From Ktedonobacterales bacterium (GTDB lineage: Bacteria; Chloroflexota; Ktedonobacteria; Ktedonobacterales; JADMIN01), in assembly GCA_025935235.1 (NCBI GenBank), contig JAICVT010000001.1, positions 1 through 47,076 of the forward strand: DNA of 47,076 nucleotides, in the 5' to 3' direction. A program made the position numbers and the translations under genes. The notes under the pieces are model-generated. The model did not search any database, was not told the origin of the DNA, and was given only the letters and a program-made list of their open reading frames with translations. Numbering within the stretch: the stretch's first letter is position 1; every line of letters begins with the position of its first letter. Shown here in pieces: positions 18,037-45,769 of the stretch.

Positions 18037-18408
18037 ATGCAAGAGGATCCCGCCCGCGCACGACTGCACCAGCATCTCGACCTGCGACGCGCCCTGCGCG
18101 CGCTGGGCGACGAGGTGCGCCTGGAGATCGTGCATATGCTGGCGAATGGCGCCGAGAGAAAAGTCACCGACCTGGCGGCGACGCTGCTGATTAGCCAGCC
18201 GCTGGTCTCGTGGCATCTGAGCGCGCTGCGTCGCGCGGGCCTCGTGCGCAAGCGTCGCACCGGGCGCGAGGTCTACATCTCGCTGGATCTGGCGCGCTAT
18301 CGCTCTGTCGTTGGTCAACTCGGCTCACTGATTGAGCCAGTCAGCCAGCCGCAACCAGCCGCGCGGCCCATGCGCTCCCCAGCGGAGCCAACGCCGAGCG
18401 CGGGCTGA
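18037..18408 (+). CDS. ArsR/SmtB-family transcriptional regulator
   Basis: wHTH is [64 protein letters not shown]. The ORF is open from 17971 and the start is uncertain. Confidence 0.85.
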
Positions 18409-18436
18409 GGCGGGAACGCGCCTGCAACGCGCCTGC

Positions 18437-18463
18437 ATGGCAGACATGGCAGACATGGCAGGC
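18437..18463. repeat. 9-nt direct tandem repeat x3 (atggcagac)
   Basis: Copies at 18437-18445, 18446-18454 and 18455-18463, upstream of the likely ino1 start. Confidence 0.9.
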
Positions 18464-18550
18464 GCGGCGGGCGCAGCGGGCCGCCAGACGCCGCAATTTC
18501 CGGCGGCGGCGCCCGAGGATCGTGATGGGTCTTCAGGAGGACTACAGTAC

Positions 18551-19738
18551 GTGGGCAAAGACAAGATTCGTGTCGCCATCATCGGCGTCGGCAACTGCGC
18601 CTCTTCGCTGGTGCAGGGTGTCGAGTATTACAAGCATGCCGCCGATGATGAGTTCATCCCCGGCCTGATGCACGTCAATCTCGGTGGCTACCACATCAAC
18701 GACATCGAGTTCAGCGCCGCCATTGACATTGATCAGGACAAGGTGGGCAAGGACCTGAGCGAAGCGGTCTTCGCCGGGCAGAACAACACCTACAAGTTCA
18801 GCGATGTCCCCACCAAAGGCGTGACGGTCGCGCGCGGCATGACCCACGATGGCCTGGGCAAGTACCTCTCGCAGGTCATCACCAAAGCCCCCGGCCATAC
18901 CGCCGACATCGTCAAGCTGCTCCAGGACACTGGAACCGATGTCGTCATCAACTACCTGCCAGTCGGCAGCGAGACGGCCACCAAGTGGTATGTCGAGCAG
19001 ATCTTGCAGGCGGGCTGCGCGATGGTCAACTGCATCCCGGTCTTCATTGGCCGCGAAGAGTACTGGCGCAAGCGCTTCGAGGAAGCGGGCCAGCCGATCA
19101 TCGGCGACGACATCAAGAGCCAGGTCGGCGCCACCATCGTCCACCGCGCGCTGGCTCGCCTCTATCGCGAGCGCGGCGTCAAGCTGGAGCGCACCTATCA
19201 ACTCAACGTCGGCGGCAACACTGACTTTATGAACATGCTGGAGCGCGAGCGACTGGAGTCCAAGAAGATCTCCAAGACCAACGCCGTCATTAGCCAGCTC
19301 GACTACGACCTCGGCACATCAAACGTGCATGTCGGGCCAAGCGACTACGTGCCGTGGCTCACCGACCGCAAGTTCGCCTTCATCCGCCTGGAGGGGCGCA
19401 CCTTCGGCGATGTGCCGCTCAACCTGGAGCTGAAGCTGGAGGTCTGGGATTCGCCCAACTCCGCTGGCGTGGTGATTGACGCCATCCGCTGCGCCAAGCT
19501 CGCCAGGAATAACGGCATCGCCGGGGAGCTGCTGGGGCCGAGCGCCTACTTCATGAAGTCGCCCGCCATCCAGTACACCGACGAGCAGGCGCGACTGATG
19601 GTCGAGGAGTTCATCCGCGATAACGCGCTGGGCGCCAAGCCCGCCAGCGACGCCAAGCCCGCTCAGGCCAAGGCGCACGCCAACGGCCACACGCTGGCCG
19701 AGGCTGGCGCGGTTCGCGACCTGCCGACGGCGGAGTAA
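18551..19738 (+). CDS. ino1: myo-Inositol-1-phosphate (inositol-3-phosphate) synthase
   Basis: [24 protein letters not shown] is nearly identical to the actinobacterial Ino1 N-terminus. The Rossmann and catalytic regions are conserved throughout. GTG at 18551 is preceded by AGGAGG (18535-18540). The ORF is open back to 18332, but that would overlap arsR. Confidence 0.9.
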
Positions 19739-19895
19739 GCGACGCGCCTCGCCCATGCGCGAACATGTGTGATGCGCATCAACGCGCCTGGGCGAGCGGC
19801 GCGTGGCGCGTGGCGTTCGCGCCACCGCCGCTCAGGGCATCTCCCAACGTACATCTGGTATCGCCTCTGATCGCCCGGAAGGCGAGGAGCATGCG

Positions 19896-20885
19896 ATGGT
19901 CTACTGGTTGACACGACTGGCAAGCTGGCTCACGGGAAAGGTTCCCCGCCGCGCGCGTCTGGCGCTGGGGGGGCCGCTCACGACGCTCGTCTACTATGCC
20001 TGGGCGTCGAAGCGGCGCGTGACCATCGCCAACATGGCGCAGATCATCGGCGCGACGCCTGATGATCCACGCGCACGCCAACTGGCCCGCCAATCGTGGC
20101 GCAACTATGGTCGCTACCTCTCCGACTTCTTCTATCTGCCCAATGCGACGCGCGAGCAGGTGATGGCGCGCGTGCGCGATGTCACACCCGCTCCGGGCGC
20201 CTTCGCCGGGCTGGATGAGGCGGCGGCGCTGGGCAAGGGCACGATCATCGCCACCGCGCACTTCGGCGCGTGGGACATCGCGGGCGTGGTCGTCGCCTCG
20301 AAGCAAACACTCTATGTGCTGGCCGACACCTTCACCGACCCGCGCATGGATGATCTGATCCAGGGACAGCGCGCGCACTTCGGGCTGCGCGTGCTGCGGG
20401 CCGAGAAGTCGCCGCGGCCCATCCTGCGGGCGCTGCAAGACAACCAGGCGGTGGCGATCGTGGCCGACCGTCCGCTGCCAGCGAGCGAGGGCACGCCGAT
20501 CACCTTCTTTGGGCGGCGCTGCTACGTGCCGGGCGGGGTGGCGCAGCTCGCGCTGCTCTCAGGCGCGCCGATCGCCGTGGGCTGCGCGCGCTACGACGAC
20601 CAATTCTCGTCCACCTATTACCTCGTCCTGGCGGAGCTGATCTATCCAGAGCGCACAGGCGACCGTCAGGCCGACATCATCCGGCTGACACAGCGCGTCT
20701 ATAGCGCGCTGGAGCGCGTCATCGCGGAACACCCGGACCAGTGGTTCATGTTCCGCCCATTCTGGCCAGAGCAACCAGAGCAATCGGCGACGGCGCCCGC
20801 TGACGCCGCGCCCGCGTTGGCGACGAGCGCTCCGGCCAGCGCCGCGGCCTCCGCGGGCGGCGCGCAGGGGGAAGCGGATGACTGA
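19896..20885 (+). CDS. Lysophospholipid (lauroyl/myristoyl, HtrB/PatA-like) acyltransferase 1
   Basis: LPLAT-family layout: N-terminal membrane-associated helix, then HFGAWD (HX4D-like catalytic motif). ATG at 19896 is preceded by GGCGAGGAG. Its stop overlaps the next start (ATGA). Confidence 0.8.
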   Translation: MVYWLTRLASWLTGKVPRRARLALGGPLTTLVYYAWASKRRVTIANMAQIIGATPDDPRARQLARQSWRNYGRYLSDFFYLPNATREQVMARVRDVTPAPGAFAGLDEAAALGKGTIIATAHFGAWDIAGVVVASKQTLYVLADTFTDPRMDDLIQGQRAHFGLRVLRAEKSPRPILRALQDNQAVAIVADRPLPASEGTPITFFGRRCYVPGGVAQLALLSGAPIAVGCARYDDQFSSTYYLVLAELIYPERTGDRQADIIRLTQRVYSALERVIAEHPDQWFMFRPFWPEQPEQSATAPADAAPALATSAPASAAASAGGAQGEADD

Positions 20886-22032
20886 GCGCCCCGACGCGCC
20901 GAGCGCGCGGCTCGATGTGAATGACCGGAACGATCCTGGAGGTCTGAACGACCGGGCGAGGTACTGGGCGTTCCGCCTGCTGGCGGCGCTCGCGCCGCTG
21001 GCGCCACTCTGGCTGGCCCAGCGCATCGCTGTGGCGGCGGGGGCGCTGCTGTGGCTGTGCGCGGGCGGGCTGCGGCGGCGAGCCGAGCGCAACCTGGGGC
21101 GCATCCCCCCGCTGGCGGCTGATCCGGCGCGGCTGCGTGCGGCCACACGTGGCGTCTTCATCAACCTCGCGCTGAACTACCTGGACTTTTTCCGGGGGCG
21201 CGTCGTCACCTATGAGGAACTGGCGCGCGGCTGGCAGATCACCGGCTGGGAGCTGTTCGAGCAGGCCATGCGAGCGGGGCGCGGCGTCATCATCCTGGGC
21301 GCGCACCTTGGCCCCTTCGAGTACGCAGCATGGAAGCTGGGCGAGCTGGGCTATCCCCTGCTGACCCCGGCGGAGCGGCTGCGACCGGAGCGCTTCAACC
21401 AACTCGTGGCGCGGCTGCGCAACCATCATCACGCGCGGCTCTTGCCGGGCGACGACCGCGAGACGCTGCGCGAGTTGCTCGGCGCACTGCGCAACGGCCA
21501 ACTGGCGATGTTCGCGATTGATCGCTGGGTGATGGGGCCGAGTGACGCATGGCCACTCTTCGGGCAACCCGCGCGCCTGCCGACCGCGCCCTTCGCGCTG
21601 GCGGCGCGCAGCGAGGCGCCCGTCTTTCTGCTGGTTCCCTGGCGCCGCGGACTCAACCGCTATGGCGGCAGCGTGGAGTTGATCACGCCGGAGCGTCTGC
21701 GCCCAGAGGCCAGCGCCGATGGCGAAGGTGGTAGCGAATCTACTGGCGCCCCACGCGGACGCGACCGCGAGGCCGCCATCGCGCGGATGCGCCAGCGGCT
21801 GTATCCCGCGCTGGAGCGCGCCATCAGCGAGCATCCAGAGCAGTGGGTCTCGGCGCTCTCGCCCATCTGGGACGAGCGAGACGCCCAGCCACGGCGGTCG
21901 CGAGCCGCCGCGACAGAGGAAGCGACGGAGCAGACAATGGAGCAGGCGCCAATGGCGACGACGCCCGCAATCGTGAGTGGCGCGCGTTCTGCGTTGCCTG
22001 GAGGAAACGCGCGCGTGCAGATAGCGCAGTAA
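20878..22032 (+). CDS. Lysophospholipid (HtrB/PatA-like) acyltransferase 2
   Basis: Paralogous layout with HLGPFE in the catalytic position. An 8-nt overlap with the upstream paralogue suggests translational coupling. Confidence 0.75.
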   Translation: MTERPDAPSARLDVNDRNDPGGLNDRARYWAFRLLAALAPLAPLWLAQRIAVAAGALLWLCAGGLRRRAERNLGRIPPLAADPARLRAATRGVFINLALNYLDFFRGRVVTYEELARGWQITGWELFEQAMRAGRGVIILGAHLGPFEYAAWKLGELGYPLLTPAERLRPERFNQLVARLRNHHHARLLPGDDRETLRELLGALRNGQLAMFAIDRWVMGPSDAWPLFGQPARLPTAPFALAARSEAPVFLLVPWRRGLNRYGGSVELITPERLRPEASADGEGGSESTGAPRGRDREAAIARMRQRLYPALERAISEHPEQWVSALSPIWDERDAQPRRSRAAATEEATEQTMEQAPMATTPAIVSGARSALPGGNARVQIAQ

Positions 22033-22183
22033 GCAGAGCGTCGTGGGCGCCAGTCGCAATCACTGGACGCAACCAGCGAGAAGCGCCCGCGTAAAGCATC
22101 GGGGCTCGCGCGGCGCCGAACGACCCACACGGCCAAGATGGGCCAGAGCGCACGACGCGCTATCACCTTTCGCGCCAGACCTG

Positions 22184-22189
22184 TATAAT
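22184..22189 (+). promoter_or_regulatory. Candidate -10 element (perfect TATAAT) upstream of the PHP-pimA genes
   Basis: ctgTATAATg in the 380-nt gap after acyltransferase 2. I see no convincing -35. Confidence 0.3.
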
Positions 22190-22230
22190 GAGGTGACTCG
22201 GCGGACAACGCGCGAGCGCGCACAGGTGAG

Positions 22231-22276
22231 ACAAGGCAAGACCAGGCGAGACCAGGCAAGACCAGGCAAGACCAGC
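22231..22276. repeat. 10-nt direct tandem repeat x4.5 (accaggcaag)
   Basis: acaaggcaag accaggcgag accaggcaag accaggcaag accagc, lying between the TATAAT and the AAGGAG at 22283. Confidence 0.9.
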
Positions 22277-22413
22277 GACGACAAGGAGCTTTTCCCATTA
22301 CCTATCCATCAGACACATCAGCGCACAGCACTCGCAGCAGCACACCTGCCGCCGATTACACCCTTTCAGGATACGTTGGCCGCAAGCGCGCCACCGGGCT
22401 TGCCGACCTGCAC

Positions 22414-23235
22414 ATGCATACGACCTATAGCGATGGCGTCGGCTCCGTCGAAGAGACGCTGGCCGTCATCCAGTGGCGCACCGCGCTGGATGTGATCGCT
22501 ATCACCGACCACGACACCATCGAGGGCGCGCTGCGGGCGCGCGATCTGGCGGAGCGACAGCATCTGCCCTTCGAGGTGATCGTCGGCGAAGAGGTCAGCA
22601 CGCGCGAGGGGCATGTGCTGGCGCTCTTCCTGCATCAGCGCATCCCGCCGGGGCTGAGCGTCGAGCGCACCATCGAGCTGGCGCACGCGCAGGGCGGGCT
22701 GGCGATCATCGCGCACCCATTCAATCCCGTCTTCCGTCATAGTGTGCAGCGGCCGGTTGTGGATCGCCTGCTGCGCCAGCCCGATCTGCATCCCGACGGC
22801 ATCGAGACGCTCAACGGCAGCTTCGCGGGCATCGGCTCGTCGCGCGTGGCGCAGGAGCTGACGCGCTCGATCTACCATTGGGCCGAGACCGGCGGCAGCG
22901 ACGCGCACACGCCCTCGGCGATTGGCTGCGCGCTGACCCGCTATCCTGGCTCCGGCGTGGAGGCGCTACGCCAGGCGATCAGCCAGCGCGCCACGAGCGC
23001 GGAGGGCGGCTACTGGCGCGCGCGCGAGTATGTCACCTACGTCTCGCACACCATAGCCTATGGCATCAACGCGACCTATGAGCCAGCGAACCTGCCGCAT
23101 ACGGCGTTCTCGCGGGCGCGGCAGGCCACCTTTGGCCGCTTCGCACACCGGCGCGTCGTTCACCTGATCAATTCGCTGGCGCCCGATTCGCTGTCCGTCA
23201 ATTCGCTTGAAGTGGCGAGCGCGGGCAGACGCTAG
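22414..23235 (+). CDS. PHP-domain metal-dependent phosphoesterase (TrpH/YciV-like); true start lies upstream of 22414
   Basis: HMHTTYSDG...AITDHDT...AHP...ETLNG...GGSDAH are PHP metal-ligand motifs. The first His of the HxH motif and its preceding Asp (ADLHMH) are encoded upstream of the first ATG. Confidence 0.8.
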   Translation: MHTTYSDGVGSVEETLAVIQWRTALDVIAITDHDTIEGALRARDLAERQHLPFEVIVGEEVSTREGHVLALFLHQRIPPGLSVERTIELAHAQGGLAIIAHPFNPVFRHSVQRPVVDRLLRQPDLHPDGIETLNGSFAGIGSSRVAQELTRSIYHWAETGGSDAHTPSAIGCALTRYPGSGVEALRQAISQRATSAEGGYWRAREYVTYVSHTIAYGINATYEPANLPHTAFSRARQATFGRFAHRRVVHLINSLAPDSLSVNSLEVASAGRR

Positions 23236-23313
23236 CCCCATGCTAGTCGCTCGCTCGCACGCTGCCGCGCCAGGCCATTCAGGAGGAGATGGGCGAACGC
23301 CCAGAGGGACCTA

Positions 23314-24510
23314 GTGAAGATCGGACTTGTCTCGCCCTACGACTGGAGCTACCCCGGTGGCGTCCAGGAGCACATCCAGCGCCTGTCCACTGAGCTGCGC
23401 GGGCGCGGCCACAGCGTGCGCATTCTCACGCCGGCCACGGGCGTGCGCGGGCGACAGGTCGAGTATGGCGTCTACAAGCTCGGCTGGGCGGCGCCGCTGC
23501 ATGTGAACGGCTCGATCGCGCGGGTCGCCTTCGCGCCGCACGTCTCTGGACGGCTGCGCGGCATCCTGCATCGCGAGCAGTTCGACATCATCCACCTGCA
23601 CGAGCCGCTGGCCTCGCCGATGGGGCTGTACGTGCTGCATACTGGCCCGGCGACCGGCGCGACGATTGTCGGCACATTCCACGCCTGGGCGCGGCACAGT
23701 CTGGCCTCGGCGCCAGAGTGGGCTTACGCCTCGGCGGCGCCATTCCTGGGGCGCTACTATCGGCGGCTGGATGGCCGCATCGCCGTCTCGCCCGCCGCCG
23801 CGGAGTTCGTCTCACGCTTCTTCCCCGGCGACTTCCGCATCATCCCGAATGGCGTAGATACGCAGGTCTTCCATCCCGATACGCCGCCGCTACCAGCGTT
23901 CGACGATGGCAAGCTCAACATCCTGTACCTGGGGCGCATCGAGAAGCGCAAGGGGTTGAAGTATCTGCTGCGCGCCATCCCGATGATCCGCGAGCACTTC
24001 CCCAATACGCGCTTCCTGATCGGCGGCGACGGGCCGCTGCGCGTGGGATTCGAGCGACTGGTGGCGCAGGCGGGCTGGCCCGATGTCGTCTTTCTGGGGC
24101 GAGTGCCAGGGGAGCAACTACCCGCGCTCTTCGCCAGCGCGCACGTCTTCTGCGCGCCCAACATCGGCGGCGAGTCGCAGGGCATCGTGCTGCTGGAGGC
24201 GATGGCCTCCGGGCGGCCGGTCGTCGCGTCTGACATCCCCGGCTTCCGCTCGGTCATTCGCCACCAGCAGGATGGCCTGCTGACCCCGCCCACGCGCAGC
24301 GAAGAGCTGGCCTGGGCGGTGTGCCATCTGCTCAGCGACGACGCGGAGCGCGCGCGACTGGCCCAGGCGGGTCGGGAGCGCGCCGAAGCGTTCAGTTGGG
24401 AGCGTGTGGCCACCGACGTGCTGGGCTACTACGAAGAGCGGCGGGCGACGGTCAAGCGTGGCTCGCTCTATCTGCCGCCGGAGGCCGCATCGGTCTCGCT
24501 GGCGGATTAA
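23314..24510 (+). CDS. pimA: GT4 glycosyltransferase, PimA-like phosphatidylinositol alpha-mannosyltransferase
   Basis: MKIGLVSPYDWSYPGGVQEHIQRL..., HLHEP, GRIAVS, IPNGVD and CAPNIGGESQGIVLLEAMASGRPVVASD track mycobacterial PimA along the whole length. GTG start with GAGGGA upstream. Confidence 0.85.
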   Translation: MKIGLVSPYDWSYPGGVQEHIQRLSTELRGRGHSVRILTPATGVRGRQVEYGVYKLGWAAPLHVNGSIARVAFAPHVSGRLRGILHREQFDIIHLHEPLASPMGLYVLHTGPATGATIVGTFHAWARHSLASAPEWAYASAAPFLGRYYRRLDGRIAVSPAAAEFVSRFFPGDFRIIPNGVDTQVFHPDTPPLPAFDDGKLNILYLGRIEKRKGLKYLLRAIPMIREHFPNTRFLIGGDGPLRVGFERLVAQAGWPDVVFLGRVPGEQLPALFASAHVFCAPNIGGESQGIVLLEAMASGRPVVASDIPGFRSVIRHQQDGLLTPPTRSEELAWAVCHLLSDDAERARLAQAGRERAEAFSWERVATDVLGYYEERRATVKRGSLYLPPEAASVSLAD

Positions 24511-24530
24511 CGTCGTAGCGCCGCTCGCGG

Positions 24531-24578
24531 CGCCCATCGAAACGCCCACCGAGGCGCCCATCGAGGCATCCATCAGGG
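24531..24578. repeat. Degenerate 12-nt tandem repeat x4 (cgcccatcgagg)
   Basis: cgcccatcgaaa cgcccaccgagg cgcccatcgagg catccatcaggg. Confidence 0.8.
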
Positions 24579-24710
24579 CTAGCGCAAACGGCTGGCGCGC
24601 TCGCGGCGATGGCTCAATCGCTCAATACAGAGAGCGACGATGAGCGGAGCGATACGCGACGCGCGGGTAGTGTGCCGAGGAGCGTCTGAGCGTTCGAGTC
24701 AGCGCCCTGA

Positions 24711-24719
24711 TGGTACAAT
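24711..24719 (+). promoter_or_regulatory. Candidate extended -10 promoter (TGgTACAAT)
   Basis: tggtacaat lies about 27 nt upstream of the ATG at 24746. The RBS-like ggagcgagga lies between them. Confidence 0.35.
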
Positions 24720-24745
24720 GAACACCACGCGGAGCGAGGAAGAAC

Positions 24746-25519
24746 ATGTTCGGGCCGGGCATTCAACAACGAGCGCGACGCATCGCCGAATACGTGGTGC
24801 GTCCACTCGCGGCGATCGGCCTCACACCGAATATGGCCACGCTCATCGGGCTGCTGCTCAATGGCGTCGCCGCGGCGATTCTGGCAAGCGGCAGCCTGCG
24901 GCTCGGTGGCCTGGCGCTGCTGATCGCCGGTCTCTTTGACATGGTGGATGGGGCGCTGGCGCGGGTCACCAACAAGAAGACGACGTTTGGCGCGTTCTTC
25001 GATTCGACGATTGACCGCTACTCCGAAGGGCTGACGCTGCTCGGCGTGATCGTCTTCGCGCTGCGGCAGCCGCCCTCGCCCACGCACACCTGGGAAGTGG
25101 CGCTGGCCTACGTGGCCGCGCTCGGCTCGGTGATGGTGAGCTACACGCGCGCGCGCGCCGAGGGGCTGGGCCTCAGCCTGAAAACCGGGCTGATGGCGCG
25201 CCCTGAGCGGGTGCTGCTGCTGGCGGGCGGCCTGATCATTGGCGGAGCCGATTGGCTCGTGTGGACCCTGCTGGCGCTGGCGGTGACGAGCGTCTTCACC
25301 TCCGCCCAGCGCATCGTTGATGTCGCCCGCATGCTCGCACGAGCGGGCGCCAACTCAGGCGCCCGCACGACCGCGACCGCCGCGCCATCGGAGCGCGCCA
25401 TCAGCGGGAACGGGCACGCCGCGTCGGCTTCGTATTCCACGACAACACAACGAACACCAATCACTCCAGAGTCTCCCTCCTCGGCGCGGTCAAGGGGCGG
25501 CTCTGGGCCAGCGAACTGA
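24746..25519 (+). CDS. CDP-alcohol phosphatidyltransferase (phosphatidylinositol-phosphate synthase-like)
   Basis: Full CDP-OH_P_transf motif D(x2)DG(x2)AR(x8)G(x3)D(x3)D is present as DMVDGALARVTNKKTTFGAFFDSTIDRYSE. Multiple TM helices. Context is ino1 and pimA. Confidence 0.85.
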   Translation: MFGPGIQQRARRIAEYVVRPLAAIGLTPNMATLIGLLLNGVAAAILASGSLRLGGLALLIAGLFDMVDGALARVTNKKTTFGAFFDSTIDRYSEGLTLLGVIVFALRQPPSPTHTWEVALAYVAALGSVMVSYTRARAEGLGLSLKTGLMARPERVLLLAGGLIIGGADWLVWTLLALAVTSVFTSAQRIVDVARMLARAGANSGARTTATAAPSERAISGNGHAASASYSTTTQRTPITPESPSSARSRGGSGPAN

Positions 25520-29262: not shown

Positions 29263-32037
29263 CTACGCGGGGAGCATCTCTGCGACTCTCGCGAGATCGA
29301 GCGCCTGCTGGATCGTGAGCTGCTGGCCAATCTCCGTGGCGCGGGCGACCTCGTCGGCTGAGAGCGCCGCCCGCGCTTGCTCGACAAACTCGCGACCGGC
29401 TGTCTCTTCGGAGTAGACGTTGACAATCCCTTCCTGGTGAGCATAGACCTCCGCCGCGGCGGCGATCTGTACCGCCCGGTCGGGTCGGCGCTCAACAAAC
29501 TCGGTGGAGGCCAGCCCGATCAGCGCCAGTCCGACTCCGCGGACGCTCCCTACGTCAGCATAGGCGCGCGCGGAGTCGAGGAAGGAGCGGCGCGCATCTG
29601 CCGTGTCCTCGCGCCGCAGGAAGATCCAGGCCGTCTCATCGAGGATACGGGCCTCCTCGGCGCGATCGCCGATCGTCTCGAATGCGGCGAGCGCCTGCGC
29701 ATAGAGGTCGAGAGCGCCTGCGAGGTCGCCACGGCCAGCCGCCAGAGCGGCAAGCCCGCCAAGCGTGAGGCCAGTGCCCTCCTTGTCGCCGAGTCGCCGC
29801 TGGATGTCGAGCGCCTGGGAGTAGCGCGCGTGCGCGGTGTCCAGGTCGCCGTTGGCAGTGCGCAGGATGCCTTCGATCGTCAAAGCCATCTCCTGGCCCC
29901 AGGCGAACCCCATCGCCTGGCTCTGCTCGATGCCCTTTGCTGTCCACCGAAGCCCCGCGTCGAGATCAAATCCGAGCAGCCCCAGGCCGATGACAAACGC
30001 CGCCACACAGCGCTCGTGATCGTCGCGCAGCTCGTCCGCGATGGCATAGGACTCTGCCCATAGCTCGTTCGCACGCGCAAACTCACCTAGCACCCACCAC
30101 GCTAGCCCCGCCGTTCTCAGAGCGCCAGATCGTCCGACGGTGCGCGAGCCACTCGCGTCCGTGGCGAGGAAGGCCGAAGCGTAGTCACGGGAGGTGAGAT
30201 TCTTGCCCCGAATGTGCCAATACATGTAGAGATCGCCGCACAGTCGCATGCCCGCTTCGGCGGCGGTCGCGTCACCACTCTGAGCCAGCTTCAGGAAGCT
30301 GTCGAGGGCAGCCTGGAGGTTGCCCTCCTCGGCGATGCCGCGTTCGAGCGAGGCCACCTGAGCGCTCCCCTCGATGCCGTCGCGAATCTCGTGGGCAAGC
30401 CCCGCGTAGCGCTGGGCGTGCCGCAGCGTGATCGCATCCGCCTCACCAGCGGCTTCGAGCCGCTCGCGGCTGTACTCGCCAATCGTCTGCAACAGCCGCA
30501 GCCGGTTGCTCTGGATATCCACCTGCACGAGCGCCTTGTCGACAAGTGACTCCAGCTCATCGAGGCACGACCCGCCTGGGTCCGCGCAGATCGCCTCGAC
30601 ATCAGCGAAGTCGCACCCGCCGACGAACACCGCCAGGCGCCGGAAGAGACGCTGCTCGCTCTCGGTGAGCAACGAATGGCTCCAGTCAATCGCTGCACGG
30701 AGCGTCTGGTGGCGCGAGGGTTGGTCGCGCTGGCCGGTGGTGAGCAGGTTCAGCGCGTGGTCAAGCCGTTCCACCAGCGCCTGCGCGGAAAGCAGCCGCA
30801 GCCGCGCGGCGGCAAGCTCGAGCGCCAGCGGCAGGCCATCCAGGCGGCGGCACACCGCGACGATGGCGCTCGCATTCTCGGGTGTCAGTGCGAACGATGG
30901 CTTTGTGGCGCTGGCGCGTTCGACAAACAGCGCGATGGCGGGGTATTCCAGAAGCGAGGCGACCGACGCCAGATCGGAGCCGACGACTGACGCCGAATCT
31001 GGGGCGGGGAGGGCCAGTGGCGCCAGGGAATACTCACGTTCCGCGGCGATGCGCAGCGGTGTCCTGCTGGTGGTCACGATGCGCAGGCGTGGGCAGCTCT
31101 CCACCAGGCGGGCCACCTCGGGCGCGGCCTGCACGACCTGCTCCAGATTGTCCAGCAGCAGCAGCGCGCGCTTGTCCCCGAGGAGGGCGATGACGCCCTG
31201 GCCAGCCGTGCGGCCCTCCGCCTCCTTCACGTCCAGCGCCGCCGCCAGAGCGGGAAGGAAATTCGCCGGATCGCTGATGTCGGCCATCGGGATATAGGCG
31301 ACGCCATCCAAAAACTCAGGCGCGAGCAGTCGGCCGAGTTCGCCGAGCGCGCTGGTCTTGCCGACACCACCCGGCCCCGTAATCGTGACAACCCGCGCGC
31401 TCCGAACCAGCTCGGCCAGCGCCGCCAGGTCGGTGGATCGCCCAACCAGTGGCGAGCCGGACTCGGGCAGGTTGTTCGGCAGGTTGGCGTAACGCTCGCC
31501 TTTGCCTTCCAGCGCTTGCGGATCTGGCACAACGATGCCATCAGCCGAAACCGCGTATAACTCGATTGGCCGTCCGACGTTCTTGAGTCGGAACCGTCCC
31601 AGGCTGACAAGGCTCACGTCGTGCCGGTTCTTGAGCTGGTCGCGCGCAGAGTCGGACAGCATCACTCCGCCCGGGACCGCGAAGGATTCGATGCGCGAGG
31701 CGATGTTGACTGCATCGCCTGTGAGGCGCTCAGGCTCGACGAACACCTCGCCTACATGCACACCGATGCGCACGGGGATATTCTGCTGGGCAAGTTCGCG
31801 CTGGATGGCGACAGCGGCCTGCGTTGCCGCCAGCGCGCTCGGAAACATGCTCATGCTGCCGTCACCGAGCCGCTGAACAATGCTCCCGCCGAAGGACTGG
31901 TGCTGGCGCTCGACCGCGCGCATGTAGCGGTCGCGCCTGTCGACAGCCAGGCGCTCGTCGGCCTGGATCAGCGCTGTATAGCCGACCATATCGGTGAACA
32001 TCACCGCGACGAGCCGCCGATCGAGATCCTGCATCAC
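29263..32037 (-). CDS. Class III adenylate/guanylate cyclase domain + STAND P-loop NTPase + TPR protein
   Basis: Cyclase motifs are VMFTDMVGYT, GDGSMSMF, RIGVHVGEV and GDAVNIASRIES. Walker A is ITGPGGVGKTS and Walker B is LLLLDNLEQ. The C-terminal part is TPR-like helical repeats. Confidence 0.9.
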   Translation of the reverse strand: MMQDLDRRLVAVMFTDMVGYTALIQADERLAVDRRDRYMRAVERQHQSFGGSIVQRLGDGSMSMFPSALAATQAAVAIQRELAQQNIPVRIGVHVGEVFVEPERLTGDAVNIASRIESFAVPGGVMLSDSARDQLKNRHDVSLVSLGRFRLKNVGRPIELYAVSADGIVVPDPQALEGKGERYANLPNNLPESGSPLVGRSTDLAALAELVRSARVVTITGPGGVGKTSALGELGRLLAPEFLDGVAYIPMADISDPANFLPALAAALDVKEAEGRTAGQGVIALLGDKRALLLLDNLEQVVQAAPEVARLVESCPRLRIVTTSRTPLRIAAEREYSLAPLALPAPDSASVVGSDLASVASLLEYPAIALFVERASATKPSFALTPENASAIVAVCRRLDGLPLALELAAARLRLLSAQALVERLDHALNLLTTGQRDQPSRHQTLRAAIDWSHSLLTESEQRLFRRLAVFVGGCDFADVEAICADPGGSCLDELESLVDKALVQVDIQSNRLRLLQTIGEYSRERLEAAGEADAITLRHAQRYAGLAHEIRDGIEGSAQVASLERGIAEEGNLQAALDSFLKLAQSGDATAAEAGMRLCGDLYMYWHIRGKNLTSRDYASAFLATDASGSRTVGRSGALRTAGLAWWVLGEFARANELWAESYAIADELRDDHERCVAAFVIGLGLLGFDLDAGLRWTAKGIEQSQAMGFAWGQEMALTIEGILRTANGDLDTAHARYSQALDIQRRLGDKEGTGLTLGGLAALAAGRGDLAGALDLYAQALAAFETIGDRAEEARILDETAWIFLRREDTADARRSFLDSARAYADVGSVRGVGLALIGLASTEFVERRPDRAVQIAAAAEVYAHQEGIVNVYSEETAGREFVEQARAALSADEVARATEIGQQLTIQQALDLARVAEMLPA

Positions 32038-37962: not shown

Positions 37963-40653
37963 CTACGCGCCTTCCTGCTCCGCAGCCTCCTCGGCGCGTC
38001 GCACGTCTATCGCTGGCTGCGGGATGTACGACAGGAGGCGCGTATAGTCAGCCTGAGAGGCGGGCGGGAGTGCGACCTGGCTGCCAGACCCGCCAGACCC
38101 GCCGCGCGTGCGGTTGAGGCGTTCGCGCACCGCGCTGAGCGTTTGCCCGGCGAGCGATCGCTGCCCAGACTCCCAGGCGACGCTGGCCAATATCACCAGG
38201 CTCTCCAGTGCCTGCGGGATCTGATTCTGCGCCTCACAGCGGTCGGCGCTGGCGCGCAGATACGCTTCGGCCTGGGGCATGTCGCCCAGGCGCGCAGCGG
38301 TTCGTCCGAGATGCTGGAGCGTCTGCGCCTCGCCCGCCACATCCTCCATGCGCTGGTAGAGATCCAGGCTGGCGGTGAAACGCTCCATCGCCTGCGCGAA
38401 GTCTTGCTGGGCCGAGGCCAGCTCGCCCAGACTGCTCTGAGCGACCGCGGTTCCCTGCCGATCCTCCAGATCCTCAAAAATCTGGAGGCTTTCCTCCAGC
38501 GTGTGCCGCGCGGCGGTCAGACCGCCCCGCAGCCGTTGGAGTTCGCCGAGATTGATCAGGCTGACGGCGACGCCGCGGCGGTCGCCGACCTGGCGCTTCA
38601 ACCTTAAACTCTCCTCGATCAGCGGCAGCGCGCGGTCGAGATCGCCGCACTCGATCAGCAGCGCGCTGAGATTGTTGAGAGCCACCAGCGCGCCGCGCGT
38701 ATCGCCCAGGTCACGCAAGATCGCCAGACCATCGGAGTACAGCTGGCCGGCCTGCGCCTGGTCGCCGCGAAACTTAGCCACATTGCCCAGCGTCAGCAGC
38801 GCTCTGGCCTGTTTGGCGGGCTGGTCGGTTTTCGCCAGGAAGGCGCGCCCGAACTGCTCGGCGCGTGCGTAGTCGTGGCGCCCGGCGGCCAGGATCGTCG
38901 CGCAATAAAGCGCGCGGGCGAGACTCTCATCGCGCACGCCCGACCCGCCGGACCCCGTAGACGCTGGAGCGTCCGCCAACGCCAGCATGCCCTCGACCCA
39001 CTCACGCCCCTCGATTCCGTAGCCGCGCGTCTCCCAGAACCACCAGAGCGCGCCCGCGAGCCGCAAGCCCAGATCGAGGTCGTGATGCTCGCGTGTCCAG
39101 CGCAGCGCCGCGCGGATGTTGTCATACTCATCCGCCAATCGCATCAGGCTCTGTCGCTGTTGCGCGCCGGTCAGCTCTTGCTCCAGGCGCTCTACGAGGT
39201 CGGTGAAATACGCGGCGTGACGCTGGGCGAGCGAGGCGCTCTCCTTGCGTTCATCCAGCAACGTTCGCGCATGGGCGGCGATCACGGTGTGCATGCTGAA
39301 GCGCGCCGAGTCATCGCTGGATGGCGCGGCGAACATCAGGCTGTGATCAACGAGCTGGGTCAACGCGACCAGACTCGCGTCCTCGTCGCTCTGATTGTTC
39401 TGGTCAAGTGAATTGGAGAGCGCAGGTGGCGTCGGCCCACAGATCGCCTCCGCCGCTTCAACCGACCAGCTTCCCGCAAAGACGCCAAGGCGCCGAAACA
39501 GAACCTGCGCGCGTCCATCCAGCAGGTGATAGCTCCAGGACACCGCGTCGCGCATCGAGCGTTGGCGCGCGCTGCCAGCCTGAGCGCCAGCCTCTGTGCG
39601 GCGCGTGAGGAGTGAGAGCAGTCCACGTCCGCTGGCTGATGAGAGCTGGAGCAGCATCTCGCGCGGCGCCAGGCGATCAGACCAGGCGGCGGCCAGCTCG
39701 ATGGCCAGCGGGATGCCGCCCAGGCGGGCGCAGATCCTGGTGATGGCGCGCACGGCGGCGGGCGTGACGGCAAATCCCGGCTGCGCGCTCCTCGCGCGCT
39801 CCACGAAGAGCGTCAGCGCTGGGGCGCTCAGCGCCAGATCAGCGGAGATGGCGCGGCGCGGATCGGGCATGGCGAGCGGCGGCAGCGCGACAACACGCTC
39901 ACCAGCAATCTCGACCGGATGGCGACTCGTAACGAGCAGACGCGCGTGCGGGCAGCGTTCGAGGAGCTGGCTCAACAGCGAGCGCGCCTCCAGGAGATGC
40001 TCGAAGGTGTCGAGGACGAGCAGCAGACGCCTGTCCGTCAGCTCCGCGCAGAGCGTCTCGCTCAGCGATTGGCCTGCGCGTTCGCGGACGCCGAGCGCAT
40101 GCGCCAACGCCGACGGAACATACGCGGCGTGGGCCACCGGGGCCAAATCAACGACCGCCACATCCGCAGCCAACGCAGGCGGCAGGGATCCGATCACCTC
40201 CAACGCCAGGCGCGTCTTGCCAATCCCGGCTGGGCCAGTCAGTGTGACCATGCGATCATGGTCCTCGGCGAGCGCGGCTCGCACGGCCTTCAGTTCACTC
40301 GCGCGGCCAATCAGCGGCGGCGGCACAGCGAACTCGTCGCCAGCGGGCGGCTCGCCTGTCATCGGCTCGCCTGTCATCGGCGCCGCTGCCGCGTGAGCCA
40401 GAGAGGTCACATGGGCGCCGCCAGTGAAGCGCGCGGGGCGCAGCAGCGCCTCCTCATCCGCGGTCAGCTCCAGCGCCGCGCTCAGCAGGCGCAGGGTATC
40501 GCGGCGCGGGTAGCGGCTGATACCGCGCTCAATGTCGCTGATCGTGCGGATGCTTACGCCAGAGTGTTCAGCCAGTTCCTCCTGCGTCAGGCCGTGCGCC
40601 GTCCGCAACTGCTGGAGCGCCAGCGCCAGCGTTGGCGGTTCTGGATGGGCCAT
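37963..40653 (-). CDS. STAND-type regulator: XRE-HTH + P-loop NTPase + TPR (no LuxR domain)
   Basis: XRE HTH is GLTQEELAEHSGVSIRTISDIERG. Walker A is LTGPAGIGKTRLA and Walker B is LLLVLDTFEH. Many clear TPR units (e.g. LGNVAKFRGDQAQAGQLYSDGLAI). The ATG at 40653 has GGGAGG 6 nt upstream; a TTG lies at 40659. Confidence 0.9.
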   Translation of the reverse strand: MAHPEPPTLALALQQLRTAHGLTQEELAEHSGVSIRTISDIERGISRYPRRDTLRLLSAALELTADEEALLRPARFTGGAHVTSLAHAAAAPMTGEPMTGEPPAGDEFAVPPPLIGRASELKAVRAALAEDHDRMVTLTGPAGIGKTRLALEVIGSLPPALAADVAVVDLAPVAHAAYVPSALAHALGVRERAGQSLSETLCAELTDRRLLLVLDTFEHLLEARSLLSQLLERCPHARLLVTSRHPVEIAGERVVALPPLAMPDPRRAISADLALSAPALTLFVERARSAQPGFAVTPAAVRAITRICARLGGIPLAIELAAAWSDRLAPREMLLQLSSASGRGLLSLLTRRTEAGAQAGSARQRSMRDAVSWSYHLLDGRAQVLFRRLGVFAGSWSVEAAEAICGPTPPALSNSLDQNNQSDEDASLVALTQLVDHSLMFAAPSSDDSARFSMHTVIAAHARTLLDERKESASLAQRHAAYFTDLVERLEQELTGAQQRQSLMRLADEYDNIRAALRWTREHHDLDLGLRLAGALWWFWETRGYGIEGREWVEGMLALADAPASTGSGGSGVRDESLARALYCATILAAGRHDYARAEQFGRAFLAKTDQPAKQARALLTLGNVAKFRGDQAQAGQLYSDGLAILRDLGDTRGALVALNNLSALLIECGDLDRALPLIEESLRLKRQVGDRRGVAVSLINLGELQRLRGGLTAARHTLEESLQIFEDLEDRQGTAVAQSSLGELASAQQDFAQAMERFTASLDLYQRMEDVAGEAQTLQHLGRTAARLGDMPQAEAYLRASADRCEAQNQIPQALESLVILASVAWESGQRSLAGQTLSAVRERLNRTRGGSGGSGSQVALPPASQADYTRLLSYIPQPAIDVRRAEEAAEQEGA

Positions 40654-40670
40654 GAGCAACCTCCCTGCGC

Positions 40671-40929: not shown

Positions 40930-41610
40930 ATGGCTAGACAGAAGCGGTCATCGTGTCAGAGCGTAGCGATCTCTCGGCTGGGGATCAGCGTGTTGCTGGT
41001 CAGCGTGCTGGCGCTGGCCGCGTGCGCGAGTGGCGGAGCATCCAGCGGCGCTGGTGGCGCTGGTGGCTCCTCGTCTACTGGCAGCTCGCCGACGGCGACG
41101 GCGCCTGGGCCGACACCGACGATCGCACTCCAGCAGATCACAGTCGCCTATTGCTCAAAGCTCCTGCCGCTGGCGACGGCCAACCAGATCATCCCGGCGT
41201 CCAGTCCGGCGACCACAATCACGCAAGGCAACCCCAACCCCGCTCTGAGCGGCGCGTGCAATTATGTCGTGCCGCCCTCGCAGGCGCTGTTGGTCGTCTA
41301 CTTCATCCCCTATCATGGACCCGACCCAATCCCGCAGAGTGACATTCAATCCGAGCTGTCAAAGGCCGCTGGAAACGACGTGACGGTCACGGCGCTCAAC
41401 ATGGTCTCCGGAATCGGCGACCAGGCGGCATATGTGGAGGCGACCGCCAACGGTAATGGCGGCTCGGTCACTATCCATATCTTCTATGTGCTTGAAGGCC
41501 CGTTCATCTTCGACTGCTTCACGGAGAGCTACCTTTCGCCCGTGATGGCGAACCAGAGCCAGCTCCGGCAGTGCGCGACGACGGTGGATGCCAACCTGCG
41601 CACGTCATAG
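40930..41610 (+). CDS. Hypothetical lipoprotein
   Basis: Signal peptide with lipobox LALAAC, then a G/S-rich linker. No recognised domain. Confidence 0.65.
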   Translation: MARQKRSSCQSVAISRLGISVLLVSVLALAACASGGASSGAGGAGGSSSTGSSPTATAPGPTPTIALQQITVAYCSKLLPLATANQIIPASSPATTITQGNPNPALSGACNYVVPPSQALLVVYFIPYHGPDPIPQSDIQSELSKAAGNDVTVTALNMVSGIGDQAAYVEATANGNGGSVTIHIFYVLEGPFIFDCFTESYLSPVMANQSQLRQCATTVDANLRTS

Positions 41611-41638: not shown

Positions 41639-42364
41639 TCACTCGCGGATAATCTCGCCATTGTTGAGGATGGATGGGTCGGGGGTGTAGGTGGGGTACT
41701 CGATCTCCCAGATGTGGCCCGGCTCCTCGCGCGCCTCCCAGCGGCGCAGCGCATCCATCAGCACGGCGCGCTGGATGTCAGGCCGGTTCGGCAGGCCCAG
41801 CGGATCGCCCAGCGTGAAGCCGACCGGATGAATCGCGCGTGGCGGTCCCATCTCCGCTGAGGCCTTGGGCAGCAGGGTGATGAGGACGGTGGGCAGGCCC
41901 AGCATCTCGATCTCGCGTTGAATCGCCACGACCGTGCGATGGCAAAGCGGTCAGCCAGCGGTCAGCAGCACAGCGTCGGCGCGCGAGCGCTCGATCAGCT
42001 TCGCCATCTCGGGCGCGGCGCGCTCGTAGAGGTCGCGGATCTTCTGGGTGTAGCCCATGAAGCCGAGATGCTTGTCACCCACACCGCCGATCACGCCCTC
42101 GGCCGCCAACTCGCGCAGGCGATCAATTGGGAAGACGCAGTTGATGTCCTGGTCGGCGTGGCGGTGGTCATAGTGCTCGTGCGTCACCATCAGGTGGTCG
42201 CTGGCCACATCGCCAGGGATCAGCCGCCACGAGTTGTCGCCCGCCAGATCAAACGGCTCCTGCTCGCGCAGGTGCACGCCCGCCGTCGTGACCAGCGCGA
42301 AAGTCGTCTCAGCCAGCTCGCGTCGTCGCGGGGTATAGGGGATGCAGCGGCGCGACATCGGCAT
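41639..42364 (-). CDS. Selenoprotein B family protein (PrdB/GrdB-like), Sec encoded by in-frame TGA at 41951..41953
   Basis: The two track ORFs are in the same frame and separated only by the TGA. The joined product reads ...RADAVLLTAG-U-PLCHRTVVAIQREIEMLGLPTVLI... It also has VTHEHYDH..DQDINCVFPIDRLRELAAEG, matching my recollection of PrdB (..MTAGUGTCHR.., DINCMFPLDRL). A SECIS-like hairpin lies downstream. Confidence 0.8.
41918..41945 (-). promoter_or_regulatory. SECIS-like stem-loop downstream of the UGA
   Basis: mRNA reads UGA-CCGCUUUGCC-AUCGCAC-GGUC-GU(G)GCGAU-U-CAA. The 7-bp upper stem has one bulged G and starts 11 nt after the UGA. The apical loop is GGUC, and there is a short lower stem UUG/CAA. 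Confidence 0.6.
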
Positions 42365-42451
42365 AGCGACAGCCTCGATTCTGGCATAGAGTGGCGCGGC
42401 GGCGGTTGATGATGAGCGTATGGATTAGGCAATCGTGTGGCGCCGTAGGAG

Positions 42452-42591
42452 ACGGGCGGGTAAACCCGCAGCTAAGGGCGTTCCGCCGCGAAGCCTGCCT
42501 CCGCAGGCTAGGAGACGGTGGGTTACGTCCTAGCCTGCGGAGGCAGGCTTCGCGGCCCGCAGGCCACTTAGCTGCGGCTTCAGCCGCCCGT
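42452..42591. repeat. 140-nt imperfect palindrome with 29-bp perfect central stem
   Basis: Arms 42485-42513 (gccgcgaagcctgcctccgcaggctagga) and 42528-42556 are perfectly complementary, around the 14-nt loop gacggtgggttacg. Outer pairings are ccgcagctaag/cttagctgcgg and acgggcgg/ccgcccgt. Confidence 0.9.
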
Positions 42592-42654
42592 GGCCCCGCG
42601 CCGGACCATCACCCAATCACCATGTGTTTCCGCATCAACCGCTGGCTTGTTATG

Positions 42655-43146
42655 TTAGCTGAGCTTGCGCAACACCTCGAACAGCTCTTCGTTGTCGGGC
42701 GTCTCGCCGATGGGGCGATGGACGTGGATCCAGGCAATCTTGCCGCTCTTATCAATCACGAAAAGCGCGCGCTCAGCCATGCCCCCCGGATGCCGCACGC
42801 CGTAGAGATCAACTACCTTGCCCTGGGGATAGAAGTCGGAGAGCAGCGGGAAGGTCACGCCGATCTGCTTGGCCCACGCGGCCAGCGAGTGCTTGGTGTC
42901 CTCGCTGACGCCGATCACCTCGGTGTCATAGGAGCGGAAGCGGTCCAGCTCCGCCTCATACGAGGGCATTTGCGCCGAGCAGGTCGCGCTGAACGCGAAG
43001 GGGAAGAAGGCCAGCACGACGTTCTGCTTGCCACGGAACTCGCTGAGCGTCACCGATCCGTCGGTGGTGGCGGAGGCCAGGGTAAAATCAGGGGCTTCAT
43101 CGCCCACTTTCAACGTCGGCGTAAACGACGCGCTCTCGACTGCCAT
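42655..43146 (-). CDS. Peroxiredoxin (AhpC/TSA-Bcp/AhpE-like thiol peroxidase)
   Basis: GDEAPDFTL...[21 protein letters not shown] has the peroxidatic Cys in a T-C context. The ATG at 43146 has AAGGAG 10 nt upstream. The ORF is open to 43197. Confidence 0.85.
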
Positions 43147-43260
43147 GTGAGAAGCTCTCCTTCTTGCACGCACGCGCTGCTTCAGCGTCTGCGCCAAAAT
43201 GCGGGCGTGGGGGTTCGCTTGGGATTGTAGCGTGGGGCTTGCGCCAGCGTCAAACCCGTC

Positions 43261-45052: not shown

Positions 45053-45769
45053 ATGATCATTCGCGTCTTCCGTGCGCGGCTCAAGCCGGGCGCGCGTCCG
45101 GCGTATGAGCGCCTCTGCCGCACAGTCAGCGAGCCGCTGATGCGCGCCCAGGAAGGCTGCCTGGCCGTCTCGATTGGCGAGGCTGACCTGTCAAAGCCCG
45201 ATGACTTCGTCTTCGTGTCGGTCTGGCGCGACCTCGAGCATCTGAAAGCCTTCGTCGGCGAGCAGTGGCGCGAGGTGAGCATCCTGCCGGGCGAGGCTGA
45301 TCTGCTGGAGGTGGCGCGGGTCGAGCACTACAATGAGTCGTACCAGAGCCTGATCGAGATGTGGACGGCGACGGCGGATGTCATCAAGCGGCGCGAGATG
45401 ACGGCGCTGGCGGTGACGCTGACCGACGCGCAATGGGCGGCGATTCAGCCCCTGTTGCCCGCGCCAGCGCGCACCGGCCGCCCACGCGCGGAGGACCGCC
45501 GCACGCTCGAAGGCATCCTCTATGTGCTGCGCAACGGCTGTCGCTGGCACGATCTGCCCGCGCGCTATGGTGATCCCGTCACCTGCTGGCGGCGCTTTGT
45601 GCGGCTGGAAGCGTCGGGCGCGTGGGAGCGCATCTGGGCCACGCTGCTGCGCACGCTGGACCCAATGGCGCAGCAGGCCTGGACGCTGGCCTTCCTCGAC
45701 CTGCGGCAGATTCCCACCCGGCCAGGGCGCAAATACGGCGCGTGGGCGGCTCAGTTCGCCAGCGGCTGA
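45053..45769 (+). CDS. Fusion ORF: ABM (antibiotic-biosynthesis-monooxygenase/Dabb-like) domain + IS5-type transposase N-terminal (DUF4096-like) fragment
   Basis: aa 1-105 (MIIRVFRARLKPG...FVFVSVWRDLEHLKAF...) look like an ABM ferredoxin-like fold. aa 123-238 read LTDAQWAAIQPLLP...GRPRAEDRRTLEGILYVLRNGCRWHDLPARYGDPVTCWRRFVRLEASGAWERIW, the conserved N-terminus of IS5/IS427-group transposases. Confidence 0.7.
   Translation: MIIRVFRARLKPGARPAYERLCRTVSEPLMRAQEGCLAVSIGEADLSKPDDFVFVSVWRDLEHLKAFVGEQWREVSILPGEADLLEVARVEHYNESYQSLIEMWTATADVIKRREMTALAVTLTDAQWAAIQPLLPAPARTGRPRAEDRRTLEGILYVLRNGCRWHDLPARYGDPVTCWRRFVRLEASGAWERIWATLLRTLDPMAQQAWTLAFLDLRQIPTRPGRKYGAWAAQFASG
45398..45769 (+). mobile_element. 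Truncated IS5-family transposase remnant (N-terminal HTH part only, no DDE domain)
   Basis: The transposase-like sequence stops at FLDLRQIPTRPG, about where the DDE core normally begins (IDST.VRAH). The next gene is an unrelated MerR regulator. I identified no terminal inverted repeats. Confidence 0.6.

Follow-up and report, generated by a model that had tools for sequence, protein, structure and literature searches.

A 47,076-nt stretch of DNA from an uncultured soil Ktedonobacterales bacterium (GenBank assembly GCA_025935235.1, contig JAICVT010000001.1, positions 1 to 47,076; hereafter, the window) very probably carries, at positions 42364..41639 of its minus strand, a single selenocysteine (Sec)-containing PrdB-like gene that is decoded through a selenocysteine insertion sequence (SECIS) hairpin. 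The source organism has a G+C content of 67.8%, and its closest species-representative loci share 83–87% DNA identity with this one. Comparison with relatives at the sequence level establishes the structure of the gene, the equivalence of Sec and Cys at the internal UGA, translation downstream of that codon and selection on the hairpin. Judging from the selection that acts on the TGA, on the hairpin and on the frame that follows, this organism should be capable of decoding Sec, presumably in a SelB-dependent manner. In the mechanism we propose, an mRNA hairpin located 10 nt 3' of the UGA would bring SelB, loaded with Sec-tRNA(Sec), to the ribosome, the internal UGA at 41953–41951 would be decoded as selenocysteine, and the product would bear a U-P-L-C selenol/thiol active-site pair at the N-terminus of a helix.

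Two annotated reading frames form one gene

The minus-strand open reading frame (ORF) that starts with the ATG at 42364 meets a TGA at 41953–41951 (ORF 42364..41951), past which the frame remains unbroken until the stop codon at 41641–41639, for a total of 242 codons. The complete gene (41639..42364, minus strand) therefore comprises 241 codons and a final TGA. The internal TGA (41951..41953, minus strand) would encode the predicted selenocysteine U137, which is aligned with Cys in homologues and recurs as TGA in relatives, and opens a U-P-L-C redox motif. The resolving Cys140 of this UxxC motif, encoded at 41942..41944 (minus strand), is invariant in the homologue alignment and in all listed Sec and Cys forms. 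The junction reads LLTAG-*-PLCHRTVVAIQREIE, with DINCVFPIDRL upstream of it, and a GAGG motif resembling a Shine-Dalgarno sequence, read off the sequence at 42373..42376 (minus strand), lies 8 nt 5' of the ATG and may serve in initiation. A preliminary description of this DNA had joined the two ORFs into one continuous frame, and its coordinates, its frame and its LLTAG/PLCHR and DINC motifs all proved correct. It had also predicted that gene callers would report two small hypothetical genes or a pseudogene; in public gene calls on near-identical contigs, the locus is indeed broken up, into a GRDB-domain protein of 137 aa and a further piece of 88 or 96 aa that has no annotation.

The truncated 137-aa product has exact matches in 43 indexed assembly-collection blocks (ENA, NCBI GCA_035763645.1 and JGI samples), out of which 23 contigs were read. 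Since this exact product recurs in independent assemblies of the population, the TGA is not a sequencing error. Ten fetched near-identical copies differ from the window by no more than two bases across the gene, and the only polymorphisms seen in the population 3' of the TGA were two synonymous changes and one Gly-to-Ser replacement.

The internal TGA recurs among relatives and alternates with cysteine codons

When species-representative genomes were scanned for the DNA pattern T-A-G-TGA-P-L-C-H-R, 107 stretches were recovered, about 100 of which are true homologues, while chance is expected to yield a handful, by our own estimate from the information content of the pattern. Each of these roughly 100 homologues continues for 85–104 conserved in-frame codons past the TGA. 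Their hosts belong to Bacillota, Chloroflexota, Acidobacteriota, Thermodesulfobacteriota, Nitrospinota and Armatimonadota, and include Neobacillus, Mesobacillus, Anaerobacillus, Ammoniphilus and other Bacilli, Symbiobacteriaceae, and many metagenome-assembled genomes of Ktedonobacterales. Two of the TGA-form relatives look damaged and may be pseudogenes or assembly errors: L054 has just 14 in-frame upstream codons, and L131 shows either a ratio of nonsynonymous to synonymous substitution rates (dN/dS) of ~0.95 downstream of the TGA or an indel.

A second scan, of metagenomes, was protein-based and unbiased with regard to the Sec codon. It returned 80 relatives at 64–93% identity, and in the 78 that could be scored the codon at the Sec position was TGA in 39, TGC in 31 and TGT in 8. 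Altogether, about 140 loci carry TGA at this codon, among them some 40 distinct Ktedonobacterales lineages, and within Ktedonobacterales the Sec and Cys forms interleave at 70–92% identity. The 120 closest database proteins are 67–86% identical to the window product, and those that bear an organism name come from Ktedonobacteria. All 120 are full length (206–288 aa, mostly 237–244 aa) and all contain C-P-L-C-H-R. The preliminary description had made its reading dependent on homologues that align across the junction with Sec or Cys at this position, and that is what we observed: all of the 120 best homologues have Cys there, and other relatives have TGA at the same codon.

Compared with its Sec-form relatives, the window gene has a median dN/dS of 0.106 over the 130 codons preceding the TGA and of 0.177 over the 85 codons following it, and the downstream values for Cys forms are similar to those for Sec forms. 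The PLCHR segment right after the TGA is invariant across homologues. These sequence comparisons indicate that the region past the TGA is translated in frame and is under purifying selection. Two of the features expected of a bacterial selenoprotein gene are thus present, namely a UGA that aligns with Cys and a conserved, selected coding sequence downstream of it. Global reassignment of UGA was considered and rejected, as 12 of the 30 other predicted genes in the window end in TGA; because UGA is an ordinary stop codon in those genes, its recoding would have to be site-specific.

A hairpin past the UGA is conserved together with it

Separated from the UGA by a 10-nt spacer (CCGCUUUGCC), the mRNA can form a SECIS-like hairpin, AUCGCAC-GGUC-GU(G)GCGAU (41922..41940, minus strand), with a 7-bp stem, its loop at 41933–41930 and a bulged G at 41927. 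This hairpin had been proposed in the preliminary description, the position and sequence of which stand and have now gained comparative support; the spacer had been given as 11 nt and is 10 nt, and folding of the single sequence yields no signal.

With a hairpin defined as at least 6 bp closed by a tetraloop NGUN at either of two register positions, it is present in 119 of 126 distinct Sec forms vs. 5 of 34 distinct Cys forms (Fisher p = 3e-20), and restricting the comparison to the unbiased metagenome set leaves the difference in place (29/30 Sec forms vs. 5/34 Cys forms, p = 5e-12). Numbering from the U of the UGA as position 0, the two registers can be described as follows. In class B, found in the window, most Ktedonobacterales and Symbiobacteriaceae, positions 13–19 pair with 24–31 around a GGUC loop at 20–23, with a bulge in the 3' arm. 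In class A, found in Bacilli and Ktedonobacteraceae, positions 16–22 pair with 27–33 and the loop at 23–26 is AGUU or GGUC.

The constraint is visible at the level of individual codons. Among 37 distinct Sec sequences that share the amino-acid context of the window, the codons that make up the hairpin are frozen (His CAT 37/37, Arg CGC 36/37, Thr ACG 37/37, Val GTC 37/37 and Ala GCG 30/30), while the Val codon that supplies the bulge is free at its third base (GTG 14, GTT 14, GTC 5, GTA 4) and variation is also seen in the Pro, Leu, Arg and Glu codons on either side. Where Cys forms have this same peptide, their codons across the hairpin region differ from one form to another. Pairing is likewise maintained: 95.2% of class B cells are paired, with a compensatory U-A to C-G change, whereas controls slid along the sequence reach 21–70%, and none of 500 shuffles attained the observed number of double changes. 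For class A, 99.7% of cells are paired, compensatory changes occur at 4 of the 7 pairs, and the covariation score is 0.527 vs. 0.256 for shuffles. Over both classes, slid controls are 19–70% paired vs. the observed 95–99.7%. Shared ancestry as the sole cause of this conservation is unlikely, since flanking synonymous sites vary freely (dS 0.3–2.0), and it is further opposed by nested Cys forms that have lost the codon constraint. Collectively, the comparative evidence supports selection of the hairpin specifically in company with the TGA, which is the behavior expected of a SECIS element.

A group of metagenome Cys forms (L173, L176, L177 and L179–L182) keeps the 7-bp class A stem but has the loop changed from AGUU to UGUA through two synonymous substitutions; in these, the stem is plausibly a fossil SECIS left behind by Sec-to-Cys conversion. 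In L178, from the same run of Cys forms, the stem is lost.

Affiliation with the selenoprotein B superfamily

For profile searches, the U of the 241-aa product was replaced by C. The Pfam model GRDB (PF07355) matched residues 8–136 with 40 bits vs. a gathering score of 22, which places the protein in this superfamily; the match stops at profile position 346 of 347, i.e. at the residue immediately preceding U137, suggesting that the seed proteins of the model were themselves truncated at Sec. The C-terminal 103 codons of the gene (41639–41950) encode a conserved domain that is not covered by Pfam, and no Pfam match is recorded for the downstream fragment. The best NCBIfam match was PrdB (TIGR04483; E = 1e-56, residues 10–223), at 192.1 bits vs. 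an equivalog cut-off of 300. The GrdB, GrdF and GrdH models gave 51–59 bits vs. cut-offs of 602–800, with TIGR01918 at 56.6 vs. 65.45. The preliminary description, which had assigned the product to the selenoprotein B family from its size and motifs, is upheld by the PF07355 score and the PrdB-like length; of the two models against which it had suggested aligning the product, PF07355 is above its threshold and TIGR01918 is below.

No relative was found in the Protein Data Bank by sequence search, nor any Foldseek neighbour at E < 0.01 for the AlphaFold2 (AF2) model of an 86%-identical Cys homologue. In this model (pLDDT 92.5), the CxxC motif lies where a strand passes into the N-terminal end of a helix, as is typical of redox-active pairs.

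Among the alternatives, we first weighed whether the protein is a true D-proline reductase subunit with the gene for its PrdA partner at another place in the genome. The TIGR04483 hit is the best NCBIfam match, the length (~240 aa) and the UxxC motif are those of PrdB, and homologues are named PrdB in JGI and in some NCBI records. Set against these resemblances are the score, well under the equivalog cut-off, and the genomic context. PrdA, GrdA, GrdE and other Stickland components, including any Gly_reductase-type gene, were absent from the scanned predicted genes of the 47-kb window and from the genes called in the adjoining 10-kb flanks; across 181 loci, PrdA and the prd operon are not among the conserved neighbours, and a peroxiredoxin is the only neighbour conserved across phyla. 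Moreover, aerobic soil Bacilli and Ktedonobacteria are among the hosts, and we take these not to be Stickland fermenters. With an equivalog score that falls short and no PrdA in the context scanned, the protein is not PrdB proper, and we consider a true proline reductase subunit very unlikely. The protein instead belongs to a stand-alone branch of the GrdB/PrdB "selenoprotein B" superfamily and is most probably not a subunit of D-proline or glycine reductase. This agrees with the preliminary description, which had noted the lack of PrdA, GrdA and GrdE in the window and favoured a stand-alone redox protein over a Stickland reductase.

Other possible fates of the UGA codon

Several observations weigh against the reading of the locus as a Sec-decoding gene. 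Taken alone, the hairpin is thermodynamically unremarkable, with fold z-scores of −0.5 to +1.3, and minimum free energy folds pick other pairings; the conserved amino-acid sequence already biases part of the stem towards pairing; and one Cys form (L121) retains the stem, with a UGUG loop. Rfam returned no SECIS family at either the gathering or a permissive threshold. ARAGORN detected no tRNA-Sec in the window or in ~190 loci, and tblastn with E. coli SelA, SelB and SelD gave no true match in the window or any fetched locus. The sole selB-like match, in L117, was rejected as IF-2. The 10-kb flanks of the Anaerobacillus homologue, which comes from a closed genome, contain no sel genes either. 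Finally, a single base change suffices to turn TGC into TGA.

The last points are those on which a pseudogene would be argued, that is, mutation of a TGC or TGT codon for Cys to TGA in an organism unable to insert Sec, leaving a 136-residue fragment as the only product. Such a reading could further draw on the Cys present in all 120 best database homologues and on the two damaged-looking related loci. It is, however, difficult to reconcile with a TGA that is fixed across many assemblies, with some 40 Ktedonobacterales lineages in which the TGA is followed by intact frames at a dN/dS of ~0.18, with hairpin synonymous sites frozen in TGA forms only, and with population changes after the TGA that are limited to the three described above. 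We therefore regard a pseudogene as very unlikely.

Two separate or associating chains, the second starting at the GTG at 41929 or at a nearby start codon, would accommodate both the presence of that GTG and the downstream ORF of 88 or 96 aa that callers predict. The seven codons between the TGA and the GTG, P-L-C-H-R-T-V, nevertheless include P-L-C-H-R, and because this segment is invariant in all homologues, the codons are translated and re-initiation at the GTG is excluded. A split would also destroy the UxxC pair, and Cys forms are single chains, so that we attach next to no weight to this arrangement. Read-through of the UGA by other means, with near-cognate Trp or Cys or with Cys loaded via the Sec pathway, is hardly credible in view of a SelB-type GGUC-loop hairpin conserved specifically with TGA, the Cys found at the position in Cys forms (a classic Sec/Cys pair) and the use of UGA as a stop in 12 of 30 other predicted genes.

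A peroxiredoxin is the conserved neighbour

Upstream of the selenoprotein gene and on the same strand lies a gene (42655..43146, minus strand) for a 163-aa 1-Cys peroxiredoxin of the AhpC/TSA family (Pfam AhpC-TSA, E = 1.9e-33) with its peroxidatic Cys56 encoded at 42981–42979. The preliminary description had pointed to this neighbour, and it turned out to be the only one with conservation across phyla. A sigma-70-like promoter match precedes it (43224..43253, minus strand), which as a match to the consensus only is weak evidence, and no terminator-like site was found between the two genes; together, these features hint weakly at co-expression of the peroxiredoxin and the PrdB-like gene in the window.

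Conservation of neighbours was judged by targeted searches, which replaced an initial single-linkage clustering that had merged unrelated ORFs. A peroxiredoxin homologue is adjacent to the PrdB-like gene at 131 of 181 loci, or 85 of the 97 with enough flanking sequence, and the linkage spans six phyla. It lies directly upstream on the same strand in 82 loci and convergently downstream in 49, mostly from Ktedonobacteraceae. In these peroxiredoxins, the peroxidatic Cys or Sec is the only conserved Cys position, 71 Cys-type copies contain exactly one Cys, and the family has no conserved resolving Cys.

In a number of lineages, the peroxidatic codon of the peroxiredoxin gene is itself an in-frame TGA (...P-L-D-W-T-P-V-U-G-A-Q-M-P-S-Y-E-D-D-L), followed by a conserved hairpin. 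Such genes amount to 47 distinct sequences and occur in Bacilli, Symbiobacteriaceae, Acidobacteriota, Thermodesulfobacteriota, Nitrospinota and Armatimonadota. They lie immediately upstream of the PrdB-like gene, within the L011–L117 series of loci (e.g. L012, L022, L086, L087, L066 and L084). Judged by their sequences, the peroxiredoxin and the PrdB-like gene of these groups constitute a two-selenoprotein operon.

Based on this neighbourhood, we tentatively hypothesize that the PrdB-like U/CxxC protein recycles the adjacent 1-Cys or 1-Sec peroxiredoxin, the two forming a previously undescribed peroxide-detoxifying module present in at least six phyla; we hold this to be a real possibility, though short of an even chance. 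In such a module, the U/CxxC protein would resolve and re-reduce the sulfenic or selenenic form of the peroxiredoxin and would then carry an internal Se-S bond (selenenylsulfide), to be reduced by a general thiol system. Two features of the loci speak against this partnership. The spacer between the peroxiredoxin and PrdB-like genes is 290 nt in the window (42365–42654), vs. ~16–200 nt in related Ktedonobacterales and 26 nt in Anaerobacillus, and in Ktedonobacteraceae the two genes are convergent and not co-transcribed.

Other genes in the window

On the other side of the selenoprotein gene and convergent with it, a 226-aa ORF (40930–41610, plus strand) has coding-like G+C content at third codon positions but matches neither Pfam nor NCBIfam models, and other lineages lack it beside their PrdB-like gene. 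At 45053–45769 (plus strand), a single ORF of 238 aa combines an N-terminal antibiotic biosynthesis monooxygenase (ABM) domain with the DUF4096 N-terminal domain of IS4/IS5 transposases and is called identically in all related contigs. Three STAND-type regulators of ~900 aa each are encoded on the minus strand (14789–17545, 29263–32037 and 37963–40659), two composed of HTH, AAA/NB-ARC and TPR regions (one with a LuxR C-terminus) and the third of adenylate/guanylate cyclase, AAA and TPR regions. The plus-strand cluster at 18332–25519 resembles one for phosphatidylinositol-mannoside biosynthesis, with a myo-inositol-1-phosphate synthase, two lipid A-type acyltransferases, a PHP-associated protein, a GT4 glycosyltransferase and a CDP-alcohol phosphatidyltransferase.

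Annotation of the branch and its significance

Truncation at the UGA is not confined to the window. The NCBI and UniRef homologues from Bacilli (P0122–P0152) are recorded as 144-aa proteins, and in Anaerobacillus isosaccharinicus (CP063356.2; L201, 9474–10708), where the PrdB-like gene lies 26 nt downstream of the peroxiredoxin gene, gene calling recovers all 166 aa of the peroxiredoxin yet breaks the PrdB-like gene into pieces of 144 and 81 aa. While the recoding itself is textbook, this systematic mis-annotation and the conserved pairing with a peroxiredoxin are useful new points. The C-terminal ~100 residues are left without a family, the Pfam model ending at the Sec position. That a peroxiredoxin devoid of a resolving cysteine accompanies the gene almost everywhere leads to a concrete functional hypothesis: "PrdB" is abundant in environmental sequence, yet the hosts of this branch have no proline reductase at the loci scanned, and a peroxiredoxin-recycling module, if real, could explain why "PrdB" and "Prx" selenoproteins are about equally abundant in oxic ocean metagenomes. 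In addition, the interleaved Sec and Cys forms, with hairpins that are intact, decaying or lost, provide a natural series for the study of Sec/Cys exchange.

Comparison with known systems

The closest characterized relative is PrdB of the D-proline reductases of Clostridium sticklandii and Clostridioides difficile, which has Sec in a UxxC motif encoded by an in-frame UGA (PMC13188914); the Sec-containing protein was established in C. sticklandii in 1999, as cited in that article. The window protein resembles PrdB (TIGR04483) in its length of ~240 aa, in the equivalent placement of Sec within UxxC and in the in-frame UGA, but differs in having no PrdA pyruvoyl proprotein or PrdC-F nearby, its conserved neighbour being a peroxiredoxin. 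With GrdB, GrdF and GrdH it shares the passing of the Pfam GRDB threshold (PF07355) and the position of U-x-x-C; these proteins are, however, ~430 aa long and align with the 241-aa window protein only in their C-terminal half. Unlike loci for glycine, sarcosine or betaine reductase, the scanned window genes include no GRDA, GrdE or Gly_reductase.

Sec-containing PrdB homologues were catalogued between 1999 and 2008, and "proline reductase PrdB" (pfam07355, UxxC, in Sec and Cys forms) ranked with the most abundant families of selenoproteins found by the Sargasso Sea and Global Ocean Sampling (GOS) surveys, where PrdB and Prx selenoproteins numbered 42 vs. 43 and 235 vs. 253 (PMC1088965, PMC2398784). 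Neither report separates the stand-alone branch or mentions a link to peroxiredoxin, and our literature searches, made within the searchable library, returned no account of the peroxiredoxin–PrdB-like pair, of the stand-alone branch or of Sec use in Ktedonobacteria. The marine sequences share pfam07355, UxxC and the Sec/Cys alternation with the window protein. Ocean water would not be expected to harbour Stickland fermenters, and the near-equal counts of Prx and PrdB are suggestive.

As regards the hairpin, the SECIS of E. coli fdhF is likewise short, lies just past the UGA, and combines a single bulged base with an apical loop that reads GGUC. The loop GU is 22–23 nt from the U of the UGA in the window vs. 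23–24 nt in fdhF (read from NC_000913.3). In fdhF, the spacer is 11 nt and a bulged U sits on the 5' arm, whereas the window has a 10-nt spacer and a G bulge on the 3' arm, a bulge that tolerates any base in hairpins of this type; the analogy drawn in the preliminary description is thus close in the GGUC loop and the presence of a bulge, and inexact in the spacing and in the arm that carries the bulge. A further departure from fdhF is the second register of Bacilli and Ktedonobacteraceae, in which the loop, AGUU or GGUC, is shifted by 3 nt away from the UGA.

For the proposed module, the nearest parallels, in the sense of working alike only, are AhpC–AhpD, AhpC–AhpF and the Prx–Trx and Prx–Grx pairs, the likeness being that of a CxxC or UxxC protein whose gene stands beside that of a peroxiredoxin without a resolving Cys of its own. 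The PrdB-like fold is unrelated. The protein itself belongs to a known family, of which this branch is routinely truncated in databases.

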